Source: an uncultured Methanosarcinales archaeon
GTDB lineage: Archaea; Nanobdellota; Nanobdellia; Woesearchaeales; JAGVZT01
Direction: 5' to 3'
Assembly: GCA_964419615.1 (NCBI GenBank)
Contig: CAYQPU010000030.1
Coordinates: forward strand, 1 to 22,173
Length of the DNA: 22,173 bases
Shown in pieces: positions 6,113-22,173 of the stretch. A model generated the notes under the pieces. That model saw only the letters and a program-made list of their open reading frames with translations. It did no database searches and was not told the DNA's origin. The position numbers and the translations under genes were made by a program. Position 1 is the stretch's first letter, and the number at the start of each line of letters is the position of its first letter.

Positions 6113-6132
6113 CATCAGGAGGTGGTATATTG

Positions 6133-6381
6133 ATGCAAAAAGTTGGAAAAATCACTCACTTCTTTGGCAACCTAAGTGTTGCTGTAATTGAGCTAGAAGG
6201 AGAAATTATTGCAGGTGATGAGATTCATATCAAAGGACACACCACAAACTTCACCATGAAAGTAGACTCAATGCAAATTGATCATAAAGAAGTTGAAAAA
6301 GCAGGAGCAGGCCAATCAATTGGCATGAAAGTTCCAGATGCTGTAAGGCAGAATGATGAAGTATTTTTGGTTAAAAGCTAA
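6133..6381 (+). CDS. Small beta-barrel protein ('translation elongation factor-like', EF-Tu domain II / U32 peptidase C-terminal-like)
   Basis: VGKITHFF..LSVAVIEL...GDEIHIKG.TT.F...V.SMQI....V..A..GQSIG.KV; GGAGGTGG SD. Confidence 0.8.
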   Translation: MQKVGKITHFFGNLSVAVIELEGEIIAGDEIHIKGHTTNFTMKVDSMQIDHKEVEKAGAGQSIGMKVPDAVRQNDEVFLVKS

Positions 6382-8676: not shown

Positions 8677-9231
8677 ATGGAAGATATATTTGAAATAATC
8701 ATCATTGGGAGAGGTGGTCAAGGAGCAAAAACCGCTTCAGAAGTTTTAGCAATTGCAGCCCTAAACCAAGGAAAGTATATACAGGCATTTTCTGAGTATG
8801 GTGCAGAAAGATCAGGAGCACCAATAATAAGTTTCATCAGAATAAGTGAAAAACCAATCACAATTCACACAAGTATTCTTGATCCAAATCTAGTTGTGGT
8901 AATGGATGAAACCTTGTTAAGCATGATAAATGAACATAGTGAAAAATTAATTGTTAACACTATAAGATCTCCTGAGGATATCAAATTATGTACTGATTAT
9001 AAAGGCAAGATATTCACAGCAGATTGTACTGGAATTTCTGTCGAAGTTCTTGGAAGAAACATTCCAAACACTCCAACACTTGGAGCTGTCTTAAAAGCAA
9101 CAGATCTATTACCTAAAGAATGTGTTGAACAAGAACTAAGAAATAAACTAGAAAAGAAAATTGGTAAAGAAGCAATGGATAAAAACATTGAATGTTTTAA
9201 TAGAGCATACAACGAACTGAAGGAGCACTAA
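8677..9231 (+). CDS. porG: Pyruvate:ferredoxin oxidoreductase gamma subunit
   Basis: GRGGQGAKTA, YGAERSGAP and GRNIPNTPTLGA motifs. Confidence 0.92.
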   Translation: MEDIFEIIIIGRGGQGAKTASEVLAIAALNQGKYIQAFSEYGAERSGAPIISFIRISEKPITIHTSILDPNLVVVMDETLLSMINEHSEKLIVNTIRSPEDIKLCTDYKGKIFTADCTGISVEVLGRNIPNTPTLGAVLKATDLLPKECVEQELRNKLEKKIGKEAMDKNIECFNRAYNELKEH

Positions 9232-9618
9232 ATGTCAAAAGAAAAGGTATGTGGGTTTTTAGCAGCATCAGAAGATGCAAAAAGCTGGAAAGAAATTCCA
9301 GAAGCTGGACTTATAATTGAAGCTGGAAACTCAGAAGGATATAATACTGGGAGCTGGCGAACATTCAGACCATTAGTTGATAAAAAAAGATGCATCAATT
9401 GTATGATCTGCTGGATAATGTGTCCTGATTCATCAATTATTGTTGAAAACGAAAAAATGGAAGGCTTTGATTATGGGCACTGTAAGGGATGCAAAATATG
9501 CTCAGAAGTCTGTCCAGTTAAATGCATAAAAAACATAAAAGAAAGTGATTCTGAAAATCTAGAAGGATTTGATGAACAAGGCAGAACAACTACAGTCGAA
9601 ATAAACGAGAAAAAATAA
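9232..9618 (+). CDS. porD: Pyruvate:ferredoxin oxidoreductase delta subunit (2x[4Fe-4S])
   Basis: TGSWRTFRP, CINCMICWIMCPD and CKGCKICSEVCP motifs. Confidence 0.92.
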   Translation: MSKEKVCGFLAASEDAKSWKEIPEAGLIIEAGNSEGYNTGSWRTFRPLVDKKRCINCMICWIMCPDSSIIVENEKMEGFDYGHCKGCKICSEVCPVKCIKNIKESDSENLEGFDEQGRTTTVEINEKK

Positions 9619-9621
9619 AAA

Positions 9622-10800
9622 ATGAAAACTAAAGGTTTAACAGGAGCAGACGCAGCAGGAACTGCAATGAAACAAGTCGACCCAGATGTAGTTGCAGCAT
9701 ATCCAATAACCCCTCAAACACCAGTCATGCACAAATTTGCACAATTTATTGCAGATGGTGAAGTGCACACTGAATTAATAAGGGTGGAATCAGAACACTC
9801 AGCAATGTCAGCCTCAGTTGGAGCAGCATCAGCAGGTGCAAGAGTAATGACAGCAACTGCTGCAAATGGGCTAGCTTTAATGATAGAGATAGTATACATT
9901 GCATCATCATTAAGACTACCAATAGTTATGAATGTTGTCAACCGTGCATTAAGTGCGCCAATAAATATTCATTGTGATCATTCTGATTCAATGATGGCTC
10001 GTGACTCAGGTTGGATTCAATTATACTCTGAAAATCAGCAAGAAGTATATGACAACACAATACTTGCTATCAAACTAGCAGAAACTAACAAGATTAGACT
10101 ACCTGTAATGGTATGCCAAGATGGATTTATCACAAGCCATGAAGTTATGAGAGTTGACCTTTTAGAAGACAAACAAGTTAAAGACTTTGTAGGCGAACAC
10201 AAAGCAGTATATCCATTACTAGATACTGATGATCCCGTAACTTATGGGCCTTTAGATTTATTTGACTATTATTTTGAGCATAAAAGACAACAAAGTGAGG
10301 CACTAACCCATGTTTTCAAAACATTTAAACAAATATCAGAAGAATACTCAAAAATCTCAGGAAGAAAACTGAATTTAATAGAACCTTACAAGTTGGATGA
10401 CGCAGAACTTGCAATAATCTGTCTTAACTCAAGTGCAGGTACAGCTAAATTTATTGTTGATGAATTAAGAGGATGGGGAATAAAAGCAGGATTACTAAAA
10501 ATAAGAATGTTTAGACCCTTCCCAAAACAGTTGGTTGCAGATGCACTAAAAAAATTAAAAGCATTTGCAGTTCTAGACAGATCAGAATCATTCAGCCTTC
10601 AAGGCGGCCCATTATTCACAGAAATTAGATCTGCACTTTATGAGCTAAATGAAAAACCAAAATCAATTAATTATATTTACGGTTTAGGTGGAAGAGAACT
10701 CACATTGGATCATTTAAGACAAGTGTTTGAAGAATTAGGAAAAGTGGTAGAATTAAATGAATTTGAAATTGTAAGATTTTTGGGGGTGCGAGATGGTTAA
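9622..10800 (+). CDS. porA: Pyruvate:ferredoxin oxidoreductase alpha subunit
   Basis: AAYPITPQT, VESEHSAMS, NRALSAPINIHCDHSD and YGLGGRE motifs. Confidence 0.95.
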   Translation: MKTKGLTGADAAGTAMKQVDPDVVAAYPITPQTPVMHKFAQFIADGEVHTELIRVESEHSAMSASVGAASAGARVMTATAANGLALMIEIVYIASSLRLPIVMNVVNRALSAPINIHCDHSDSMMARDSGWIQLYSENQQEVYDNTILAIKLAETNKIRLPVMVCQDGFITSHEVMRVDLLEDKQVKDFVGEHKAVYPLLDTDDPVTYGPLDLFDYYFEHKRQQSEALTHVFKTFKQISEEYSKISGRKLNLIEPYKLDDAELAIICLNSSAGTAKFIVDELRGWGIKAGLLKIRMFRPFPKQLVADALKKLKAFAVLDRSESFSLQGGPLFTEIRSALYELNEKPKSINYIYGLGGRELTLDHLRQVFEELGKVVELNEFEIVRFLGVRDG

Positions 10801-11716
10801 CCTTAAAGAATTATCAAAGCAACCTGAAAGATTGGCCCCAGGTCACAGAATGTGCATCGGTTGTGGCGTCACAATTGGAATAAGACAAATCCTTAGAGGA
10901 ACAGACAAACCAGTTGTTGTTGGTAATGCAACTGGGTGCCTTGAAGTCTGTACAACCATCTACCCTTACACTTCCTGGAAAATACCATTTATTCATAATG
11001 CCTTTGAAAATGTTGCAGCCACTATGAGTGGTGTTCAAACAGCGTATGAAGTTCTAAAAAGAAAAGGTAAAATTGACAAAGATATCAAATTCTTAGCAAT
11101 TGGTGGAGACGGTGGAACATATGACATTGGTCTACAAAGCATGTCAGGAATGATGGAACGAGGTCATAATGTCTTTTATGTTTGCTATGATAATGAAGCT
11201 TATATGAATACTGGAATCCAGCGAAGCTCGGCAACACCTTATGGTGCATCAACAAAAACAGATCCAGCAGGGAAAGTTAGACAAGGAAAAGAGCAGTTTA
11301 AAAAAGATCTTGCAAAAATAGTTGTAGCACACAACATCCCATATGTTTGCCAGGCAGCAATCCATAATTACAATGATACAATTAAAAAGGCTCAAAAAGC
11401 CTTTAACACACAAGGTCCAACATTTATGAATCTACTTACACCTTGTGTACCTGGTTGGGTATATCCAGCAAAAAAAACAGTGGATATGTCAAGACTAGCA
11501 ACAGAAACTTGTTTTTGGCCACTGTATGAAGTCGAAAACGGAAAATATACCTTAAATTATGATCCTGGTGATAAGAAAAAACCAATTACAGATTGGATAA
11601 AAACTCAAAGAAGATTTAAGCACTTATTCAAACCAGGAAATGAACACCTAATAAAGGAGCTCCAAGAGCATGTTGACAGTGAATGGGAAAAGCTAAAAAA
11701 ACTGTGTTCTGATTAG
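10793..11716 (+). CDS. porB: Pyruvate:ferredoxin oxidoreductase beta subunit (TPP-binding)
   Basis: GHRMCIGCG, TGCLEV, GGDGGTYDIG...DNEAYMNTGIQRS and PCVPGW motifs. Confidence 0.95.
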   Translation: MVNLKELSKQPERLAPGHRMCIGCGVTIGIRQILRGTDKPVVVGNATGCLEVCTTIYPYTSWKIPFIHNAFENVAATMSGVQTAYEVLKRKGKIDKDIKFLAIGGDGGTYDIGLQSMSGMMERGHNVFYVCYDNEAYMNTGIQRSSATPYGASTKTDPAGKVRQGKEQFKKDLAKIVVAHNIPYVCQAAIHNYNDTIKKAQKAFNTQGPTFMNLLTPCVPGWVYPAKKTVDMSRLATETCFWPLYEVENGKYTLNYDPGDKKKPITDWIKTQRRFKHLFKPGNEHLIKELQEHVDSEWEKLKKLCSD

Positions 11717-12015: not shown

Positions 12016-12498
12016 ATGAAACCTCAAAACAAGTTCATCCAAATGTGGTTAATAATAGCAATCATCGTTGGATTCATATTTATAATATTCTTTACAAACA
12101 ACTATCTTAAGGAAAATGTTCTTTGTGACTTGCATTGTAATAGTCACAAAAGTGTAACTTTAGCAATAACACTGGCTGCTCTTGCTGGAGTTTTTGTTGG
12201 CAGTCTCACATACTATTTAATGTCAGAAAAATATGGTAAACAAGTGAATAAATTTCAAAGGGATATCAAAGCAACAATAAAATTCCTTGAGCAAGATCAC
12301 CAGCTGATAATTAATGCTCTTATTAAAAACAGTGGTAAGTTAACTCAATCTGAACTTACAAAACAAACAAAACTATCAAGAGTGAAAATCTCTAGGGGAG
12401 TCAAACAATTAGAAGAAAAACAAATAATAACAAAATCAAAAGCAGGTATGACTAATCAGATAGAACTCCAAAAAGACTTAAAAAAGCTTTTTCTATGA
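12016..12498 (+). CDS. Membrane-anchored winged-HTH (MarR-like) transcriptional regulator
   Basis: Two TM helices separated by a CDLHC..H loop; C-terminal GKLTQSELTKQTKLSRVKISRGVKQLEEKQII wHTH. Confidence 0.8.
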   Translation: MKPQNKFIQMWLIIAIIVGFIFIIFFTNNYLKENVLCDLHCNSHKSVTLAITLAALAGVFVGSLTYYLMSEKYGKQVNKFQRDIKATIKFLEQDHQLIINALIKNSGKLTQSELTKQTKLSRVKISRGVKQLEEKQIITKSKAGMTNQIELQKDLKKLFL

Positions 12499-12608: not shown

Positions 12609-13916
12609 ATGAATAAAAAATACCTAATATTAGCATTGCTGCTATTAACAATCCCATTAGCACTAGCACAATCAGAAAAAGAACTAGTATTATTCTACAG
12701 TTCAACCTGTCCTCATTGTCATGATGAAATTGAATACTTAAATGAAATAAGATCTGATTATCCTGACATTGACTTCAGTTTTTATGAAATATCTAGCAAG
12801 AAAAACTCAGATCTGCTGGAAAAATATGCAAAAGAATATGACACAGGAACCGCAGGAGTACCAAGGACTTTCATTGCAGATAAAGTGTTTATTGGGTTTG
12901 ATCCTGGAAATGGAGATTTGACATATGCTGATCAATACAAAGCATACATTGGCTACAAAAACCAAATCAGTAATGAGCTTGCCAAATTAAACAATTCAGA
13001 GTTCACACCAACCCAGCAAAAAACATCTAATCCATTTTGGTTACTCTCATTAATCCTGGTTTTTATCCTAACATATCCATTATTCAAAAAGAAACGATTG
13101 TGGTTCTCTGGATTAGTTGGAGTTGTAATTCTATGTATATTCTTGTTTGTGCTTATATCTCCTGAATCAACCATAACAGGTTTTGCATCAAGCCTGCCAT
13201 TCCCTTTATTTGTAACAGTAATTGCACTAGCTGATGGATTTAATCCATGCGCATTCACAGTTCTTTTCATATTACTATCACTATTAACATACACAAAAAA
13301 GAAAAAAGATATGCTACTTGTTGGTTCAGTATTTATTATAACATCAGCTGTAATGTACTTTATCTTCATCTCACTAATGATCCTGGTTGGTGGAGTATTT
13401 GTTGAGAGATATGGTCAAATAATCCTAAAATTATTAGGACTAGTGGTGCTAATTGCAGGAGCAATCAATATCAAAGACTTCTTCTTTCTAGGAAAAGGAG
13501 TATCATTATCAATATCTGATAAGCAAAAAAAGGACATAACAAAAAAAGCATCAGGAATAGTAAGATCACTAAAAACCAAAACCAAATTATACGCACTAGC
13601 AGCAACATTCATCCTTGCAGTAGGAGTAAATATAGTTGAACTTGGCTGCACAGCAATACTACCAACAGTATATATGTCATCATTAATAACAAACTTTGGC
13701 TCAAAATTTACCCTACTTCATGCAATGTGGACTGGATTGTACTCCATAATTTATATTCTTCCTCTATTTGCAATCTTGGGTAATTTCATATTCAGTTTTA
13801 GATCCAGGAGAATATCTGAAAAACTTGGCAAAAGACTTAAATTAGTCTCAGGTATATTCATGTTATTATGTGGTTTAATATTGCTATTAAAACCACAGTT
13901 ACTGATGTTTGGGTGA
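12609..13916 (+). CDS. Exported thioredoxin/glutaredoxin domain (CPHC) fused to CcdA/DsbD-like membrane domain
   Basis: Signal peptide MNKKYLILALLLLTIPLALA; FYSSTCPHC; multiple TM helices with DGFNPCAF and VELGCT Cys motifs. Confidence 0.85.
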   Translation: MNKKYLILALLLLTIPLALAQSEKELVLFYSSTCPHCHDEIEYLNEIRSDYPDIDFSFYEISSKKNSDLLEKYAKEYDTGTAGVPRTFIADKVFIGFDPGNGDLTYADQYKAYIGYKNQISNELAKLNNSEFTPTQQKTSNPFWLLSLILVFILTYPLFKKKRLWFSGLVGVVILCIFLFVLISPESTITGFASSLPFPLFVTVIALADGFNPCAFTVLFILLSLLTYTKKKKDMLLVGSVFIITSAVMYFIFISLMILVGGVFVERYGQIILKLLGLVVLIAGAINIKDFFFLGKGVSLSISDKQKKDITKKASGIVRSLKTKTKLYALAATFILAVGVNIVELGCTAILPTVYMSSLITNFGSKFTLLHAMWTGLYSIIYILPLFAILGNFIFSFRSRRISEKLGKRLKLVSGIFMLLCGLILLLKPQLLMFG

Positions 13917-13920
13917 TAAA

Positions 13921-14223
13921 ATGAAATATGAAGATTGTAATGTTGAAATTAAAGATAACATTGCTGCAATTGGCTTTAACAATGATCCTGAATCTGTAAA
14001 AACAATAAAAAACATAATTTTTATGGAATTTACAGTTAAACCAGGAGATGAGGTTAACCTAGAAGATCCACTGATTAGCATCGAAGCAATGAAAGGAACA
14101 CTCCAGCTCAAAAGCAGAGTTAGTGGAAAAGTCCTGGAAACAAACTTGGAAGTTGAAGAAAATCCAGAACTTCTCCATGAAGATCCAACTAAATGGTTAA
14201 TCAAAATAGAGGTAACTGAATGA
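13921..14223 (+). CDS. gcvH: GcvH-like lipoyl carrier protein (divergent)
   Basis: IG...I.F.E...GDEV...P...IEAMK...VSGKV.E.N...EENPELL.EDP..WLIKI; lipoyl Lys58 retained; GGTGA SD overlaps the upstream stop. Confidence 0.82.
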   Translation: MKYEDCNVEIKDNIAAIGFNNDPESVKTIKNIIFMEFTVKPGDEVNLEDPLISIEAMKGTLQLKSRVSGKVLETNLEVEENPELLHEDPTKWLIKIEVTE

Positions 14224-15464
14224 ACATTGCCATAATTGGAAATGGAACAGCTGGAATAACTGTTGCATCAGAGATTCGAAAAAACAATAATGAAGCTATT
14301 ATAACAATAATTGACAAATCTGACAAATTACCCTATTCCAGATGCTCTCTACCTTACTTGATCTCAGGAGCAATCAAAGACTCTATCCAAACCTTTGGTG
14401 AATCATTCTATAAGTCAAATAATCTTAATTTGGTTCAGTCAAAAGTAAATTCAATAAATGCAACAACAAAAAAAGTCAAAACAGATGATCAGGAACTTGA
14501 ATATGATAAACTTGTGATTGCAACTGGCGCTGCTCCATTTATCCCAAGCATAAAAGGACTTGAAGATTATTACACACTCCATTCAATAGAAGATGCTGAA
14601 AAAATCACAAAAGCAGCTGATACTGCAAAAAATGCAGTAATAATTGGAGCAGGAATGGTTGGAGTTGAAATTGCAGATTCACTTTCAAAAAAACAGATTA
14701 ATGTTACATTAATAGAAGTCCAGGAAAATATTCTTAATGCCATACTAGACAAGGACATGTCTAACATAATTGAGAAAAGACTTAAAGGAGAACTAAAACT
14801 ATTCACTAAAGCTAATATCAAAGAAATCAGTCAAAATAAGATAATCCTGGAAAATCAGAAAATTGAATTTGATCTTTTGATAATGTCTTGTGGTGTGAAG
14901 CCAAACCTTTTTCTAGCGAAATCCGCGAGCTTAGATGTAGATAAAGGAATAATTGTTAACAACAAACTCCAAACAAGCAATCCTGATATTTATGCTTGTG
15001 GTGATTGTATAGAATTGCCTGGGGTTGCAAAGCTAGCAACAAATGCAATTGTGCAAGCAAAAGTAATTGCTAATAATATTATTGGAAACAATCAGAATGT
15101 ACCAACAATGCACAATACATGTATTACAAAAATTCATAATCTCATAGTTGGTTCCACAGGTCAATTAGAATGTGACAGCACAATTAGTGCAGTGTTTCAT
15201 GGAAAAACTCGAGCTGAGTACTATCCTGAAAGCAAAAAAATTCATGTTAAGTTAATAGCAAAAGACAATAAACTCGTTGGAGCTCAAATAATTGGTGAAG
15301 AAGATGTAATCGGCAGGATAAACTGGTTAGCATTGGCAATACAAAACAATATGACAGTTGAGCAATTATGCAAAGCAGAAGCAGCATACAATCCTGCATT
15401 GTCATCAACTTTTGATCCAGTAATAGTTGCTGCAAACATCCTTCAAAGGAAAATCTCCAAATGA
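14220..15464 (+). CDS. FAD-dependent pyridine nucleotide-disulfide oxidoreductase, CoA-disulfide reductase/NADH oxidase type
   Basis: GNGTAG, YSRC(42)SLPY single redox Cys, IGAGMVGVE, TSNPDIYACGD, and C-terminal dimerisation domain YNPALSSTFDP. Confidence 0.88.
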   Translation: MNIAIIGNGTAGITVASEIRKNNNEAIITIIDKSDKLPYSRCSLPYLISGAIKDSIQTFGESFYKSNNLNLVQSKVNSINATTKKVKTDDQELEYDKLVIATGAAPFIPSIKGLEDYYTLHSIEDAEKITKAADTAKNAVIIGAGMVGVEIADSLSKKQINVTLIEVQENILNAILDKDMSNIIEKRLKGELKLFTKANIKEISQNKIILENQKIEFDLLIMSCGVKPNLFLAKSASLDVDKGIIVNNKLQTSNPDIYACGDCIELPGVAKLATNAIVQAKVIANNIIGNNQNVPTMHNTCITKIHNLIVGSTGQLECDSTISAVFHGKTRAEYYPESKKIHVKLIAKDNKLVGAQIIGEEDVIGRINWLALAIQNNMTVEQLCKAEAAYNPALSSTFDPVIVAANILQRKISK

Positions 15465-16297
15465 ATTCTAAACCAAAATACAATAGAAAAAAGTATGTTG
15501 AACTAAGAGATCAATTAAAAAACAAAAAGATTCACACTGTTTGTATTGGGGCAAATTGTCCAAATCGTTATGAATGTTTTTCAGAAAACACCGCAACTTT
15601 CTTGATATTGGGAGATAAATGTACAAGGGATTGTAAATATTGCAATATACAAAAAGGTAAACCAGTATACTCAGAAAAAGAACCAAAAATAATTGCTCAA
15701 ATAGTCAAAAAACTCAACTTAAAGTATGTAGTGATAACAAGTGTTACTAGAGATGACTTAAAAGATGGGGGAGCATCTGTCTTTATTGAATGTGTAAAAC
15801 AAATAAAAAAAATAGATCCAAAAATCAAGATTGAACTTCTAATTCCAGATCTTAATGGTAATTGGGAAGCACTAAAGAGCATTACAGAGCAAGACATCCA
15901 CATCTTAAATCACAACATAGAAACAGTAGAAAAACTATTCAAAGATTTAAGACCTGATGCAGATTATCAAAGATCATTAGAGCTTTTGAAACAAGCAAAA
16001 CTATTCAATCCATATCTTAAGACAAAATCTGGATTAATGCTCGGCCTTGGAGAATCAAAGCAAGATGTAGTAAACACAATGAACGATCTAAGAAACATGG
16101 GTGTTGACTATCTCTCACTTGGACAATATTTGGCACCAAGCAAAAACCATACTCCTGTTAAAAAAAACTACACTCAAGAAGAATTTGACGGACTAAAAAC
16201 AATTGCAATGAACTTTGGTTTCAAGCATGTGTTAGCAGGACCTTTGGTCAGAAGTTCTTATCATGCGAGTAATTACATAGACTCAAACAAAAAATAA
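15461..16297 (+). CDS. lipA: Lipoyl synthase (radical SAM)
   Basis: CX4CX5C (CIGANCPNRYEC), CX3CX2C (CTRDCKYC), NHNIETV, GQYL and RSSY motifs. Confidence 0.95.
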   Translation: MNSKPKYNRKKYVELRDQLKNKKIHTVCIGANCPNRYECFSENTATFLILGDKCTRDCKYCNIQKGKPVYSEKEPKIIAQIVKKLNLKYVVITSVTRDDLKDGGASVFIECVKQIKKIDPKIKIELLIPDLNGNWEALKSITEQDIHILNHNIETVEKLFKDLRPDADYQRSLELLKQAKLFNPYLKTKSGLMLGLGESKQDVVNTMNDLRNMGVDYLSLGQYLAPSKNHTPVKKNYTQEEFDGLKTIAMNFGFKHVLAGPLVRSSYHASNYIDSNKK

Positions 16298-18245: not shown

Positions 18246-18986
18246 ATGAGACTATTACCTGACATGCAAGCAAGTGCAGCCACACTAATGGCAACAGATG
18301 AAGCAATACTTACAGCCATCACTGAAAACAAATCACCTCCAACAGTTAGGTTCTATCAATGGACACCACCTGCAGTCACAATTGGGTATTTTCAAAATCC
18401 ACAAAAGGAAGTAGACTTAGAATATCTAAAACAAAACAAAATTGATCTTGTTAGGAGAATCACAGGAGGTGGAGCAGTTTATCATGACAAAGAATTAACA
18501 TACACTCTCTTTGTACCAACTGATCAAATATCAGAAGATATTCTTGAAAGCTATAAAATAATCTGCGGAGCAATTGTTAATGGATTAAAAACAATTGGAA
18601 TCAATGCACAATTTTCACCTATAAATGATCTATTAATCAACAATAAAAAATTCTCAGGCAATGCTCAAACAAGAAAAAATGGAATAATCATGCAACATGG
18701 CACAATTCTTTTAGAAGTTGACAAAGATAAAATGTTCTCGGTTCTAAACATAACAAAAGAAAAAATCTCAGACAAACAAATCACAGAATTAAAACAAAGA
18801 GTAACTTCTCTATCAGCTGAAACCAAAATCAAAGATTTTGCAAAAGTAAGAAATGCTCTTGTTGAAGGATTTGAGCAACAATTCAATACAGAATTCACTT
18901 TGGGACAATTAACAGAATATGAAATAAGACTTCAAGCAGAGTCAATAATAAAATATCAAAGTAAAGAATGGACATACAAAAGATAG
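18246..18986 (+). CDS. lplA: Lipoate-protein ligase catalytic subunit (LplA/LipM family)
   Basis: MATDEAIL, VTIGYFQ, VRRITGGGAVYHD, KKFSGNAQ and QHGTIL motifs. Confidence 0.9.
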   Translation: MRLLPDMQASAATLMATDEAILTAITENKSPPTVRFYQWTPPAVTIGYFQNPQKEVDLEYLKQNKIDLVRRITGGGAVYHDKELTYTLFVPTDQISEDILESYKIICGAIVNGLKTIGINAQFSPINDLLINNKKFSGNAQTRKNGIIMQHGTILLEVDKDKMFSVLNITKEKISDKQITELKQRVTSLSAETKIKDFAKVRNALVEGFEQQFNTEFTLGQLTEYEIRLQAESIIKYQSKEWTYKR

Positions 18987-19231
18987 ATAAAAAAATACCA
19001 GGAGGTAAACTACTTAGAGTTGAATTTGCCAAAGATAAAGATAGAGTTACCTATATCAAAATAACAGGGGATTTTTTTATATACCCTGAGAAATCAATTG
19101 AACAAATTGAAAAAATCATCCTTGAAAATAATTTGATTAAACTAGAAGATAAACTCAATGAACACATAGTAAAAAACAAGATTCAGATAATAGGCTTTAC
19201 TATTAGTGATTTAATAAACATAATAAAATAA
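18968..19231 (+). CDS. lplB: Lipoate-protein ligase C-terminal accessory domain encoded separately (LplB-like)
   Basis: PGGKLLRV...IKITGDFFIYPE..IE.IE; overlaps lplA by 19 nt. Confidence 0.8.
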   Translation: MDIQKIDKKIPGGKLLRVEFAKDKDRVTYIKITGDFFIYPEKSIEQIEKIILENNLIKLEDKLNEHIVKNKIQIIGFTISDLINIIK

Positions 19232-19241
19232 AAAAAAAGAA

Positions 19242-20156
19242 TTATTGTTCATAATCCAACATACCAAAGTGATCCAACACTTCCTCGATAAACTTCTCTT
19301 GGGCTTTTTCTTTTTTCAGATACTGACCACCAAAGAATCTATCGTTCTCGTATCTCTCTTGACCTACAAAAGGATGGTGATGTCTAGCTCCTTTGTTCTT
19401 ATACATTTCATCCAAAGCATCCATTGCATCATACAATCCTTCAACAAAATCATAGCCAGCTCCTTCCAGTAATGACTTTGCAGCTTTAAGAGAACACAAT
19501 CCAATTTTTCTGTTGTATCTATCAGCGTATTTAGGACTCGTCATTAAATCCCCAACTCCTCCCATAATCAAACTAATGCCTACCCCATAAGCTCTATCAC
19601 TGGACCCCTCTATATAGACATTCTCTAGATCCCAATCAAAATAGGTTTGGGTTGTACCAGATTTTCCCACAAACAATAACTCATCCACTGATACTCTCTC
19701 TATTTTCTGAAATGACGGTGAAACAGCTTCATTACGTTCACCAAGTAAAAACTCTGATGCACCAAGTTGTCCAACCAATTCTCCAGTACTAAGTCTATGT
19801 AATCCATGCAAACCATATGGAACTTTAATTTCTTCTTCCTCTTCTCTTAATTCAACATTAAAAGAGTGGATTAATTCAACAAGTCCTGCAATATTATCGC
19901 TATCTATTCTATGAGACAGACCAGAGACTGAATTGAACACTTCTGCAACTAAAGGTTCAACAGTAATCTCATTCCATGTATCTGATGATCTTCTATCAAT
20001 TAGATAGTTAGAAATAATTGCACTAAATAACCCAAGCTCTTGGCGAGCAGCTTGTACATCGTCACTAAATTCTACACTATACCACTTACTGTTTTCTGAT
20101 AATAAACTGGAAGTATGTTCCAGTGTTTCCAATAAACTTATTATTTGCTTTTTCAT
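19242..20156 (-). CDS. Hypothetical acidic protein; paralog of the C-terminal part of the 21111-22173 ORF
   Basis: Colinear shared motifs ELGLF, TGE.VGQ, FDW, G.DF.E.L, PF..Q.RY and F..EVL.HF. Confidence 0.85.
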   Translation of the reverse strand: MKKQIISLLETLEHTSSLLSENSKWYSVEFSDDVQAARQELGLFSAIISNYLIDRRSSDTWNEITVEPLVAEVFNSVSGLSHRIDSDNIAGLVELIHSFNVELREEEEEIKVPYGLHGLHRLSTGELVGQLGASEFLLGERNEAVSPSFQKIERVSVDELLFVGKSGTTQTYFDWDLENVYIEGSSDRAYGVGISLIMGGVGDLMTSPKYADRYNRKIGLCSLKAAKSLLEGAGYDFVEGLYDAMDALDEMYKNKGARHHHPFVGQERYENDRFFGGQYLKKEKAQEKFIEEVLDHFGMLDYEQ

Positions 20157-21110: not shown

Positions 21111-22173
21111 TCAAGAATACTCCATTTCACGGAAATGCAGGAGAACTTCCTTTACAAAAGCTGTTTCAGCCGGCTTTCTTTCAAGAGGTTTAGCCCCAAA
21201 TTCATTACCTTCTCTATACCTTAATTGGTTTTTGAACGGATCACATCCTCCGGACTCTACTGAGTTTTCAACAGCAGATTCTAAAACTTCAATAAAATCA
21301 CCACCTGCTTGATCAATTAGGATTCTTGCGGTTTCAATCATCCTAAAACCCATATGAACATAAACTTCAGAATTAAATCTTGATCCTTTCATCATTTCAT
21401 ATCCACCATCAAGTATTAAATGGCTGCTATCAGCAATTATTTCTTCGCTTGTCCCCGGGTGATATACCTGCGTTGGACCCCAATCAAATTGTAATACGAG
21501 ACCACCCATATTGCCCTCATACAATGGACCATTATCAGATGGAATTCTAGTAATTTTATGACATAATGGAGATCTTGGAATATTATTCTTATCAAGCAAA
21601 AAATGCAGTGACGCACTCTGACCAACAAACTCTCCTGTATCCATCTCGTATGTACTTGGAATACTTTTGGCAATATCTAACTTAGTTGTTGATCCCTCTT
21701 CATGTAAATCATCATTAAATTCTCTTAATAATTCAACAAAAGTGTCAATAGTAAACTCATTAACAGTTGATCTAACTTCAAATGCACCAGTAGAAACCGC
21801 TTCAACCACACTGTTAAGAGCATTAGGAGTCCATTCCAAAGATTTTTTATTGAATCTAGTAATTGTTTTAATATAAGCTGTAAATAGACCAAGTTCAGTA
21901 ACAGCAGCTAGCATCTGGTAGCCCAAACCTTCATTTAAATAATCATGACTAGCCTGAGTAAGTCGATGTGCAATGTCGTCTATTCTTTCAATTAATTGAT
22001 TAAATTTGAGTATAACATCTGTAAATCTTTTTTGCATTTCTTCTGGACCAACTTTCAATTCTGTAATAAGTCTATCAACTTTGTTAATAAATAAAACAGG
22101 CTTAACTCTTTCACGCAGTGCTTGCTTGATTACAGTCTCTGTCTGTGGCATAATACCTTCAACAGCACAAGCT
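21111..22173 (-). CDS. Chimeric ORF: archaeal elongation factor EF-2 G-domain fragment (about 21988-22173, 5' truncated by the window) fused in frame to an orphan domain paralogous to 19242-20156
   Basis: [50 protein letters not shown] is EF-2 sequence including G4 NKVD. After FNQLIE the sequence leaves EF-2 and matches the neighbouring orphan. Confidence 0.8.
21988..21999. repeat. Perfect 12-bp palindrome TCAATTAATTGA at the EF-2/orphan junction
   Basis: Read directly from the sequence. Confidence 0.8.

Follow-up and report, generated by a model that had tools for sequence, protein, structure and literature searches.

The DsbD, CcdA and ScsB proteins pass electrons from cytoplasmic thioredoxin to two membrane cysteines, and from these to an extracytoplasmic protein of the thioredoxin (Trx) fold. 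Lipoate is the cofactor for both the 2-oxoacid dehydrogenases and the glycine cleavage system (GCS), with side roles in the AhpD/AhpC, Ohr/OsmC, sHdr and GcvH-L systems. Here we describe a gene cassette in which a putative transmembrane thiol relay of the first kind and a lipoyl system stand next to each other. It lies on contig CAYQPU010000030.1 of an uncultured archaeon of the Woesearchaeales; the entire 22-kb contig (22,173 nucleotides) was analysed and is called the window below, and the genome to which it belongs is a 1.48 Mb draft of 64 contigs that is 99.4% complete. The cassette is built around GrxMem, our label for an exported Grx/Trx-fold domain fused to a CcdA-like membrane domain. 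Genes for a GcvH-like lipoyl carrier, a flavoprotein with a single redox cysteine and the lipoyl synthase LipA follow, a gene for a winged-helix (wHTH) regulator precedes, and a split lipoate ligase, LplA, lies farther downstream. That these genes (wHTH, GrxMem, GcvH, flavoprotein, LipA, split LplA) form one functional unit around protein-bound lipoate is the best explanation of their arrangement. The same arrangement makes it somewhat probable that electrons run from NADH to the flavoprotein, to lipoyl-GcvH, to a membrane Cys pair and finally to an exported CPHC domain. That a CcdA-type transmembrane thiol relay draws its cytoplasmic electrons from protein-bound lipoate instead of thioredoxin is in our judgement an evenly poised proposition.

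Like DsbD, CcdA and ScsB, GrxMem joins an exported CxxC Trx-fold domain to a core in which two broken helices of opposite orientation are predicted to hold one Cys apiece. Unlike in those systems, its conserved genomic partner is a lipoyl carrier together with a flavoprotein and lipoylation enzymes, and not thioredoxin and thioredoxin reductase (TrxR). The window showed no context of c-type cytochrome maturation.

Several described systems use lipoyl proteins outside the classical complexes. In Mycobacterium tuberculosis, Lpd, the lipoyl E2 protein DlaT, AhpD and AhpC constitute an NADH-dependent peroxidase relay (cited in PMC12440151). That relay and the path proposed here share the order of NADH, flavoprotein, protein-bound lipoamide and CxxC protein, and the gene for an AhpD-like carboxymuconolactone decarboxylase (CMD) that follows GcvH in relatives of the cassette matches the lipoamide-AhpD chemistry of that species (cited in PMC12440151). 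The two differ in that our carrier is an orphan GcvH-like protein and not an E2, the flavoprotein is of the single-Cys CoA-disulfide reductase (CoADR) type, the genome has no CMD, and the proposed acceptor is a membrane protein and not a peroxiredoxin. Incomplete GCSs also serve in peroxide detoxification, as in the hydrogenosome of Trichomonas, where L and H proteins act with OsmC, and in lipoyl-dependent Ohr/OsmC systems (both cited in PMC12440151), and as in the GcvH_1-OsmC pair of Hyphomicrobium (10.64898/2026.10.01.755906). Common to these and to our proposal is an H-protein that works as redox donor without P and T and that a flavoprotein recycles; here, however, the genome gave no OsmC/Ohr match and has no class-I L-protein, and the linkage of the carrier is with a membrane relay instead.

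Two further systems resemble the cassette in their gene content. The GcvH-L/LplA2/SirTM/macrodomain operon of Staphylococcus and Streptococcus (PMC12440151, PMC4518038) likewise brings together, in an operon linked to stress, a GcvH paralog of dedicated function and a ligase belonging to it, but the open reading frames (ORFs) of the window gave no sirtuin or macrodomain Pfam match, and no E2 is present as lipoate receiver. The LbpA lipoate-binding proteins belong to the sHdr sulfur-oxidation system (PMC6067878) and share with our carrier the likeness to GcvH, dedicated lipoylation genes and a non-canonical role. The window ORFs, in contrast, contain no hdr-like domains, and their lipoylation genes are LipA and LplA instead of sLpl(AB)/LipS1/LipS2; LipA scores 38.9 bits with the LipS2 model, against a cut-off of 270. 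Lipoyl proteins as thiol-redox donors, GcvH-L of S. aureus among them, and thioredoxin-fed CcdA/DsbD proteins are both already known, and it is their combination that is new in the searched literature: no paper joining a lipoyl carrier to a CcdA relay was found there, in agreement with the original prediction, made from the DNA alone, that the arrangement had not been described. A GcvH operon mentioned in the Lipocone preprint proved unrelated to the cassette.

An orphan lipoyl carrier and its neighbouring membrane gene

The carrier retains the modifiable Lys58 (14092-14094) that the original prediction had singled out, and this residue aligns with the lipoyl-Lys of T. maritima GcvH. The protein matches Pfam GCV_H at 47.8 bits (cut-off 22.2) and Biotin_lipoyl at 36.8 bits. 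It thus has the H-protein profile with its lipoyl-Lys, but its 45-50 bits with the GcvH equivalogs NCBIfam TIGR00527/NF002270 stay below the cut-offs of 116-117, and P and T proteins are missing from the genome. The C-terminal helix of GcvH is absent from its 100 amino acids (aa). It groups with other truncated carriers that have the motif [AS]MKGT, in a long-branched clade of good support (100/99) that stands apart both from the KW[ST]G carriers seen in other cassettes and from the GCS-type KSVSD H-proteins; Lys58, Glu55 and Gly69 are invariant throughout the cassette carriers. A wider search with a KW-type GcvH, aimed at non-archaeal relatives of the cassette carrier, retrieved archaeal cassette carriers and then canonical GCS operons.

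The lipoylation enzymes are encoded nearby. LipA passes the cut-offs of NF004019 (377 bits, cut-off 203) and TIGR00510 (335 bits, cut-off 310) and keeps all the cluster motifs attributed to it beforehand, namely CX4CX5C (Cys28/33/39) and CX3CX2C (Cys54/58/61), and it also has RSSY. The large subunit of LplA scores 196 bits with NCBIfam LplA_large and 184 bits with lipoyltrans, both under cut-off; it is the single PF03099 match of the genome and hence its only ligase of the BPL/LplA/LipB family. The carrier, for its part, is the only Biotin_lipoyl domain of the genome. Since it is the sole acceptor domain, its Lys58 is the presumed target, onto which LplA would place octanoate or lipoate; LipA would insert the sulfurs.

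No known client for this lipoyl group was found. GcvP/T, E1, E2 and Lpd genes had been noted as absent from the window, and the absence extends to the genome, which has no GCS or 2-oxoacid dehydrogenase complex elsewhere to use the carrier. Genome-wide searches gave no match for GCV_T, GDC-P or 2-oxoacid_dh (E2), no Lpd-like gene at E<=1e-60, and no match for OsmC/Ohr or CMD/AhpD. The only E1_dh match, on contig 15, was considered as a 2-oxoacid dehydrogenase E1 and rejected; it is a split transketolase. Within the limits of a draft that is 99.4% complete, the lipoyl system is an orphan, and an organism in which none of the known lipoate enzymes was found keeps a full lipoylation kit for one small carrier. 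It might be argued that the carrier is a mere lipoyl relay or store, like GcvH in the lipoate assembly of Bacillus and Staphylococcus, for an unrecognised lipoyl enzyme or for a host, and that its position next to the membrane gene is meaningless. In Firmicutes the relaying of lipoyl groups depends obligatorily on GcvH, and in S. aureus GcvH-L donates them (PMC12440151); the genome is a draft of many contigs. We nevertheless regard this explanation as very remote, as no second lipoyl domain, E2 or amidotransferase-type second ligase was found in the 99.4%-complete genome, and as the adjacency of GrxMem and GcvH recurs across families.

That adjacency was followed through an even sample of 121 genomes from the same phylum and through a scan of species representatives (loci are coded L..., genomes and contigs G...:C...). 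The phylum-sample counts come from related genomes, and since kin are not independent they are to be read as a pattern and not as a statistic. The sample contains 18 solid GcvH genes, distributed over 17 of its 121 genomes. Four are situated within GcvT-H-PA-PB operons, and the 14 non-GCS loci, from 13 genomes of several families, all have GcvH immediately 3' of a GrxMem-family gene and on the same strand. Both GCV_T and E2 are missing from 12 of these 13 cassette genomes, and the relatives with a GCS operon retain another GcvH type. The scan of species representatives returned 80 GrxMem-family loci, 12 of them archaeal with GcvH directly after the membrane gene; beyond the phylum sample, the adjacency was found in about 10 further loci of archaeal metagenome-assembled genomes (MAGs). 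The linkage on which the original prediction depended is therefore present in many other genomes, and inside this archaeal order its conservation is strong. Candidatus Woesearchaeota MAGs supply the closest database proteins, among which one from a Suakin Deep (Red Sea) MAG is nearest at 81% identity, and two Woesearchaeota contigs carry the order wHTH-GrxMem-GcvH-flavoprotein-LipA(-LplA), one of them with an AhpD-like CMD gene after GcvH. Elsewhere the GrxMem-GcvH pair is kept where the flavoprotein and LipA genes are not adjacent (L019, L044, L092, L093).

The gene that comes after GcvH is variable, and relatives often add to the cassette, in the place between GcvH and flavoprotein genes, either a cytoplasmic AhpD-like CxxC protein or secreted CPHC lipoproteins. 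The AhpD-like protein (a CMD with CxxC..H) follows GcvH in G060, G045, G075, G020 and G119 and in L013/L024. An extra Trx-fold protein with CPHC (or CPVC) does so in five loci (L141:7609-8049, L142:5143-5604, L140:7473-7910, L138:8521-8967, L143:8420-8965). These extra proteins, of 146-182 aa, carry a hydrophobic segment, signal or anchor, at the N-terminus and a pair of Cys at the C-terminus, and most have a lipobox-like LAGCS or LTGCS; L143 is a split form, as its membrane protein has no Trx domain of its own. Two other genes were seen directly after GcvH. One, at L019:4759-5121 (= G081:C38), encodes an IscA/HesB-type Fe-S carrier, which might rebuild the sacrificial cluster of LipA; the other, at L135:8927-9688, encodes a DUF169 protein. 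In the window no extra gene of any of these kinds follows GcvH.

The membrane protein and its relation to CcdA

GrxMem consists of a signal peptide (residues 1-22), a Trx fold (about 23-130) with the active site C34-P-H-C37 (12708-12719) and cis-Pro85, and a membrane part (140-435) with eight transmembrane (TM) helices. The membrane part holds Cys214 in the motif DGFNPC (13248-13250) and Cys347 in ELGC (13647-13649). Matches of the exported part to Pfam Grx, Trx and DSBA are weak, and its structural matches to the Trx fold reach Z 10.8. The family is large (1416 matches) and very conserved, and Cys 34, 37, 214 and 347 are invariant in 30 homologs. The two membrane Cys are predicted to lie in oppositely oriented broken helices; by the positive-inside rule, the Lys/Arg-rich loops would be cytoplasmic and the Trx domain would be outside.

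Most direct searches with the membrane part returned nothing. A hidden Markov model search of PDB sequences with the membrane profile gave no match, Foldseek against the PDB retrieved the Trx fold alone with the full model and had no significant match to the membrane model, and a genome-wide search with PF02683 gave no match at E<=1. The assignment to the CcdA superfamily is made because of fold similarity and of transitive homology in which both Cys are aligned, and these are also the points in which GrxMem comes closest to DsbD, CcdA and ScsB. As to fold, the AlphaFold2 model of the membrane part (pLDDT 73) has as its top match, among 48,161 chains, the nuclear magnetic resonance structure of CcdA, 5vkv, with Z 9.1 and a root-mean-square deviation of 3.9 A over 189 of the 224 CcdA residues. 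The match involves the last six helices of the model and identifies in them a six-helix core of two inverted repeats. Shape neighbours in the ESM Atlas include clusters labelled CcdA that have DsbD_TM members, at a TM-score of 0.5-0.6. As to homology, GrxMem residues of about 195-430 match ten DPANN proteins by blastp (E 1e-10 to 1e-22, 24-31% identity), all of which pass the Pfam DsbD_TM cut-off of 27.1 bits. The motifs D[SA][IV]NPC and LPCT of these proteins align with DGFNPC214 and ELGC347 of GrxMem, and some of these relatives within the phylum are themselves fusions of a CPHC-Trx domain with CcdA. Judged from sequence and model, then, the membrane part of GrxMem is a divergent CcdA-superfamily relay that has two extra N-terminal helices and a second motif without Pro. 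A separate group of DPANN proteins, of 450-520 aa and with weak DsbD_TM matches, was tested for membership in the GrxMem family and does not belong to it.

Hypersaline and marine mat cyanobacteria (Halothece, Dactylococcopsis, Coleofasciculus, Geitlerinema, Trichodesmium) and Desulfobulbales have proteins that share 45-50% identity with GrxMem (L025-L090), and the copy in the window falls in the very clade that shows this identity to the cyanobacterial proteins. Such a level of identity suggests that the family, which Pfam does not cover, has moved laterally between domains of life.

The flavoprotein, the proposed electron path and its alternatives

The flavoprotein belongs to the single-Cys group of disulfide oxidoreductases. 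As the original prediction had it, there is one redox residue, Cys42 (14343-14345), whose counterpart by alignment is the redox Cys in CoADR and in NoxA-3, and the CxxxxC pair is absent. Pfam finds Pyr_redox_2 (191 bits) and Pyr_redox_dim, and the best PDB match is NoxA-3, 6pfz, again with Cys42 aligned. The protein is like CoADR, NSR, Npsr and the A. fulgidus NoxA-3 in its fold, its single redox Cys42 and its FAD and NAD(P)H sites, but it has no rhodanese domain and scores far under the CoADR equivalog. CoA-disulfide reductase TIGR03385 is its best NCBIfam model at 294 bits (cut-off 579), NF007123 follows with 239 (cut-off 458), and no equivalog cut-off is reached, so it is a member of the single-Cys group and not a CoADR by this measure. 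Neither is it a class I Lpd (121 bits with TIGR01350, cut-off 409). NADH oxidases and peroxidases have His10 in addition to Cys42; residue 10 here is Thr, and the score with NOXase_Strep is 155 against 600, which places the protein outside that class as well. In the cassette orthologs Cys42 is nearly invariant, and Glu166 (14715-14717), at the end of the NAD-binding beta2 strand, is invariant. By the usual Rossmann-fold rule, this Glu suggests that NADH is the preferred cofactor.

Genomic context and co-occurrence with GcvH point to a lipoyl protein as the substrate. Of the 17 genomes in the phylum sample that bear GcvH, 12 have an ortholog of the single-Cys flavoprotein (E<=1e-40), as against 2 of the 104 others. 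One cassette, G081:C22, carries a true dihydrolipoyl dehydrogenase at its end in the place of the flavoprotein, with the motif CLHRGC and 492 bits in TIGR01350. Three genomes with a complete GcvT-H-PA-PB operon have no Lpd-like gene at E<=1e-60, and each has the single-Cys flavoprotein (G117, C3:64601-65860; G035, C149:4652-5962; G074, C18:51253-52557), which may be their L-protein. The exchange for Lpd, the co-occurrence with GcvH and the GCS genomes without Lpd together suggest that the single-Cys flavoprotein cycles the lipoyl group of GcvH-type carriers.

Flavoproteins of another class were also seen next to relatives of the membrane domain. Class-I Lpd-like genes adjoin CcdA-like or Grx-CcdA genes in four genomes of the phylum, at G100:C5:57802-60310, G010:C1:82645-85709, G051:C1:87174-90615 and G028:C8:30406-33682, with scores that range from slightly under the Lpd cut-off to slightly over it. 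Of the four, G100 alone has a solid GcvH, which lies in a GCS operon on another contig. An Lpd-like gene beside a CcdA-like gene may represent a second flavoprotein-CcdA pairing.

We infer the electron-transfer steps and the direction of flow from the identities of the proteins, from the orphan state of the carrier and from the conserved arrangement of the genes. Using NADH, the flavoprotein would reduce the dithiolane of the carrier through a mixed disulfide between Cys42 and the lipoyl group. The dihydrolipoyl swinging arm would in turn reduce the Cys214/Cys347 pair from the cytoplasmic side, which is the novel step, and this pair would reduce the fused CPHC Trx-fold domain outside the cell. 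There, the CPHC domain could reduce or isomerise disulfides, or repair oxidised thiols, on surface proteins. The potentials of NADH (-320 mV), lipoamide (-290 mV) and DsbD-type Cys pairs (about -240 mV) are such that NADH, lipoamide, a DsbD-type pair and a CPHC-type dithiol would form a downhill series. The reductive direction is favoured because both this order of potentials and the known role of CcdA/DsbD fit it. Prediction of a complex between the membrane domain and the carrier gave a score of 0.00, which in a run without controls counts neither for nor against binding.

If the path is correct, it would add a new class of donor to DsbD/CcdA-type pathways and would explain the orphan gcvH/lipA/lplA genes of ultra-small archaea, the membrane relay being the sole reason for which these DPANN archaea keep lipoate synthesis. 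Single-Cys CoADR-type flavoproteins would gain a new substrate and become a new kind of NADH:lipoyl-protein oxidoreductase, possibly doing duty for the L-protein as well where relatives have a GCS without Lpd. The path would furthermore show how minimal, quinone-less, surface-attached cells handle thiol chemistry at their outer face.

Several observations weigh against this path, some of them directed at its single steps and others in favour of the alternatives set out below. Direct transfer from GcvH to the membrane Cys is read from adjacency only. We know of no single-Cys CoADR-type enzyme that has been shown to reduce lipoamide. The modification motif of the carrier, EAMKGT (14083-14100), is closer to the biotinyl motif AMKM than to the ESVKA of GcvH. 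A biotinylated carrier was considered for that reason and set aside: the genome has no BirA-type ligase, its sole ligase being of the LplA type, and LipA is coupled to the carrier through the flavoprotein gene. The CcdA label given to the membrane domain beforehand is sustained by fold similarity and transitive homology but not by Pfam, as no match to DsbD_TM (PF02683) or DsbD_2 (PF13386) was obtained at E<=10 with the whole protein or with its membrane part. No significance was reached when hhalign compared the membrane profile with ten canonical DPANN CcdA proteins (probability 1.7%), and unrelated helical proteins reach Z 8.0-8.4 against the 9.1 of CcdA, a small margin. GrxMem further departs from DsbD, CcdA and ScsB by its two additional N-terminal TM helices and by its second Cys motif, in which LGC stands for PC and the usual Pro is missing; CcdA/DsbD_TM transporters have a conserved Cys in core TM1 and another in core TM4, both within Pro-Cys motifs.

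Other evidence concerns the need for a lipoyl donor at all. Some 58 cyanobacterial, Desulfobulbales and other bacterial GrxMem loci, at 45-50% identity, have no GcvH nearby and no conserved neighbour in common, so the membrane protein needs no lipoyl carrier there, and eight archaeal loci have the GrxMem gene without GcvH. The genome also encodes conventional candidate donors. A string of genes on contig 1 (G000:C1:31654-33954; L003:1447-3747) comprises AhpC, ferritin, a YruB-type glutaredoxin-like protein and a TrxR-like protein, and a second TrxR-like gene is found on contig 4; this is the conventional system of the genome for peroxides and thiols. With such a TrxR/Grx system in the genome nothing is replaced, and the suggestion in the original prediction that the lipoyl protein replaces Trx/TrxR is not supported. 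All this is in keeping with a co-regulated envelope or oxidative-stress operon without direct transfer, in which the flavoprotein and lipoyl-GcvH would be a cytoplasmic antioxidant or a persulfide- or peroxide-reducing couple after the manner of L + H + OsmC and Lpd-DlaT-AhpD, the CcdA-like protein would be fed by a TrxR/glutaredoxin-like system, and the genes would be neighbours only through their shared wHTH regulator. The AhpD-like genes in the cassettes of relatives hint at peroxiredoxin-type acceptors, and among solved flavoproteins CoADR and persulfide reductases come closest. Yet the genome that would host this couple lacks AhpD/CMD and OsmC/Ohr matches, and no match to Pfam Thioredoxin (PF00085) above cut-off was found in it. 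Moreover, GcvH stays beside the membrane gene at every non-GCS locus of the phylum sample, even where the flavoprotein, LipA or CMD gene is elsewhere or absent, and this constancy of the pair argues against mere co-regulation, the main rival of the proposed path, which we consider a rather unlikely explanation.

The same wiring could also operate in reverse. CPHC, with its invariant His, is the active-site motif of the oxidase DsbA, and for that reason the exported domain could be an oxidant: it would oxidise surface thiols in a form of oxidative folding suited to a quinone-less organism, electrons would flow inward from the membrane Cys pair to oxidised lipoyl-GcvH, and the flavoprotein would re-oxidise the carrier toward NAD+ or O2. 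To our knowledge, DPANN archaea lack the respiratory quinones that DsbB and VKOR require. Lpd, besides, canonically oxidises dihydrolipoyl groups, and one cassette contains a true Lpd. Established potentials, however, imply that electrons would have to move uphill from a CPHC dithiol, whose potential in DsbA is high, to reach lipoamide (-290 mV) and NAD+; the flavoprotein has Thr10 and not the His10 of NADH oxidases and peroxidases; and CcdA/DsbD relatives are known only as importers of reductant into the envelope. Flow in this direction is in our view distinctly improbable, and the path from NADH outward is the one that we retain.

Layout of the cassette and neighbouring genes

The four central genes are as tightly coupled as the original prediction described, and the adjacent operon that it took for pyruvate:ferredoxin oxidoreductase (PFOR) encodes all four subunits of that enzyme. 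The TGA stop of GrxMem (13914-13916) lies within GGTGA (13912-16), 4 nucleotides before the ATG at 13921, and the two following junctions are ATGA start/stop overlaps, at 14220-14223 and 15461-15464. The features of the window that bear on the cassette are listed in the table.

Features of the cassette and of the neighbouring operon in the window
Feature	Position	Strand	Basis or remark
GrxMem	12609..13916	+	exported Trx/Grx domain + 8-TM two-Cys CcdA-like membrane domain
GcvH-like lipoyl carrier, 100 aa	13921..14223	+	Pfam GCV_H, Biotin_lipoyl
Single-Cys FAD/NAD(P)H disulfide oxidoreductase, CoADR/NSR/Nox group	14220..15464	+	Pyr_redox_2, Pyr_redox_dim
Lipoyl synthase LipA	15461..16297	+	NCBIfam NF004019, TIGR00510, motifs
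Membrane-anchored winged-helix regulator (DUF7343)	12016..12498	+	Pfam DUF7343 39.5 bits, plus MarR/HTH_24
Lipoate/octanoate-protein ligase LplA, catalytic (large) subunit	18246..18986	+	Pfam LplA-B_cat 200 bits
Small C-terminal LplA subunit (LplB-like)	18968..19231	+	Pfam Lip_prot_lig_C E 7.5e-4; overlaps LplA gene end
PFOR operon: PorC, PorD, PorA, PorB	8677-11716		four subunits, next to cassette

The split LplA is situated 2 kb downstream of the four-gene unit, and the genes for carrier, ligase and LipA all lie within 6.6 kb. In relatives LplA belongs to the cassette, and homologs of its small subunit come after it in L135, L138, L140 and L143.

The wHTH gene is the conserved first gene of the cassette, with orthologs immediately 5' of the membrane gene in L012, L013, L131, L133-L138, L141, L142 and L148. 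Its product has two TM helices, a cytoplasmic wHTH domain and a short outside loop in which Cys37 (12124-12126) and Cys41 (12136-12138) form the motif CDLHC. At least one Cys of this loop, mostly as CxC, is kept in all 11 aligned orthologs. The DUF7343 protein may thus be a membrane-tethered sensor of envelope thiol oxidation, and through its outside-loop Cys it would probably control the operon upon such oxidation, although this role is speculative. A scan of the window for sigma-70 promoters and terminators gave nothing above chance, under a sigma-70 model that is inapplicable to archaea.

Three other genes of the window deserve mention. The gene at 19242-20156 is an orphan without a Pfam match. 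An ORF at 21111-22172 runs off the end of the contig and has a partial EF-Tu/EF-2 GTP-binding match followed by Pfam-less sequence. At 6130-6381 a small protein with weak similarity to domain 2 of EF-Tu is encoded; it has kin at L019:5167-5424, just downstream of a GrxMem-GcvH pair, and the two proteins measure 83-85 aa.

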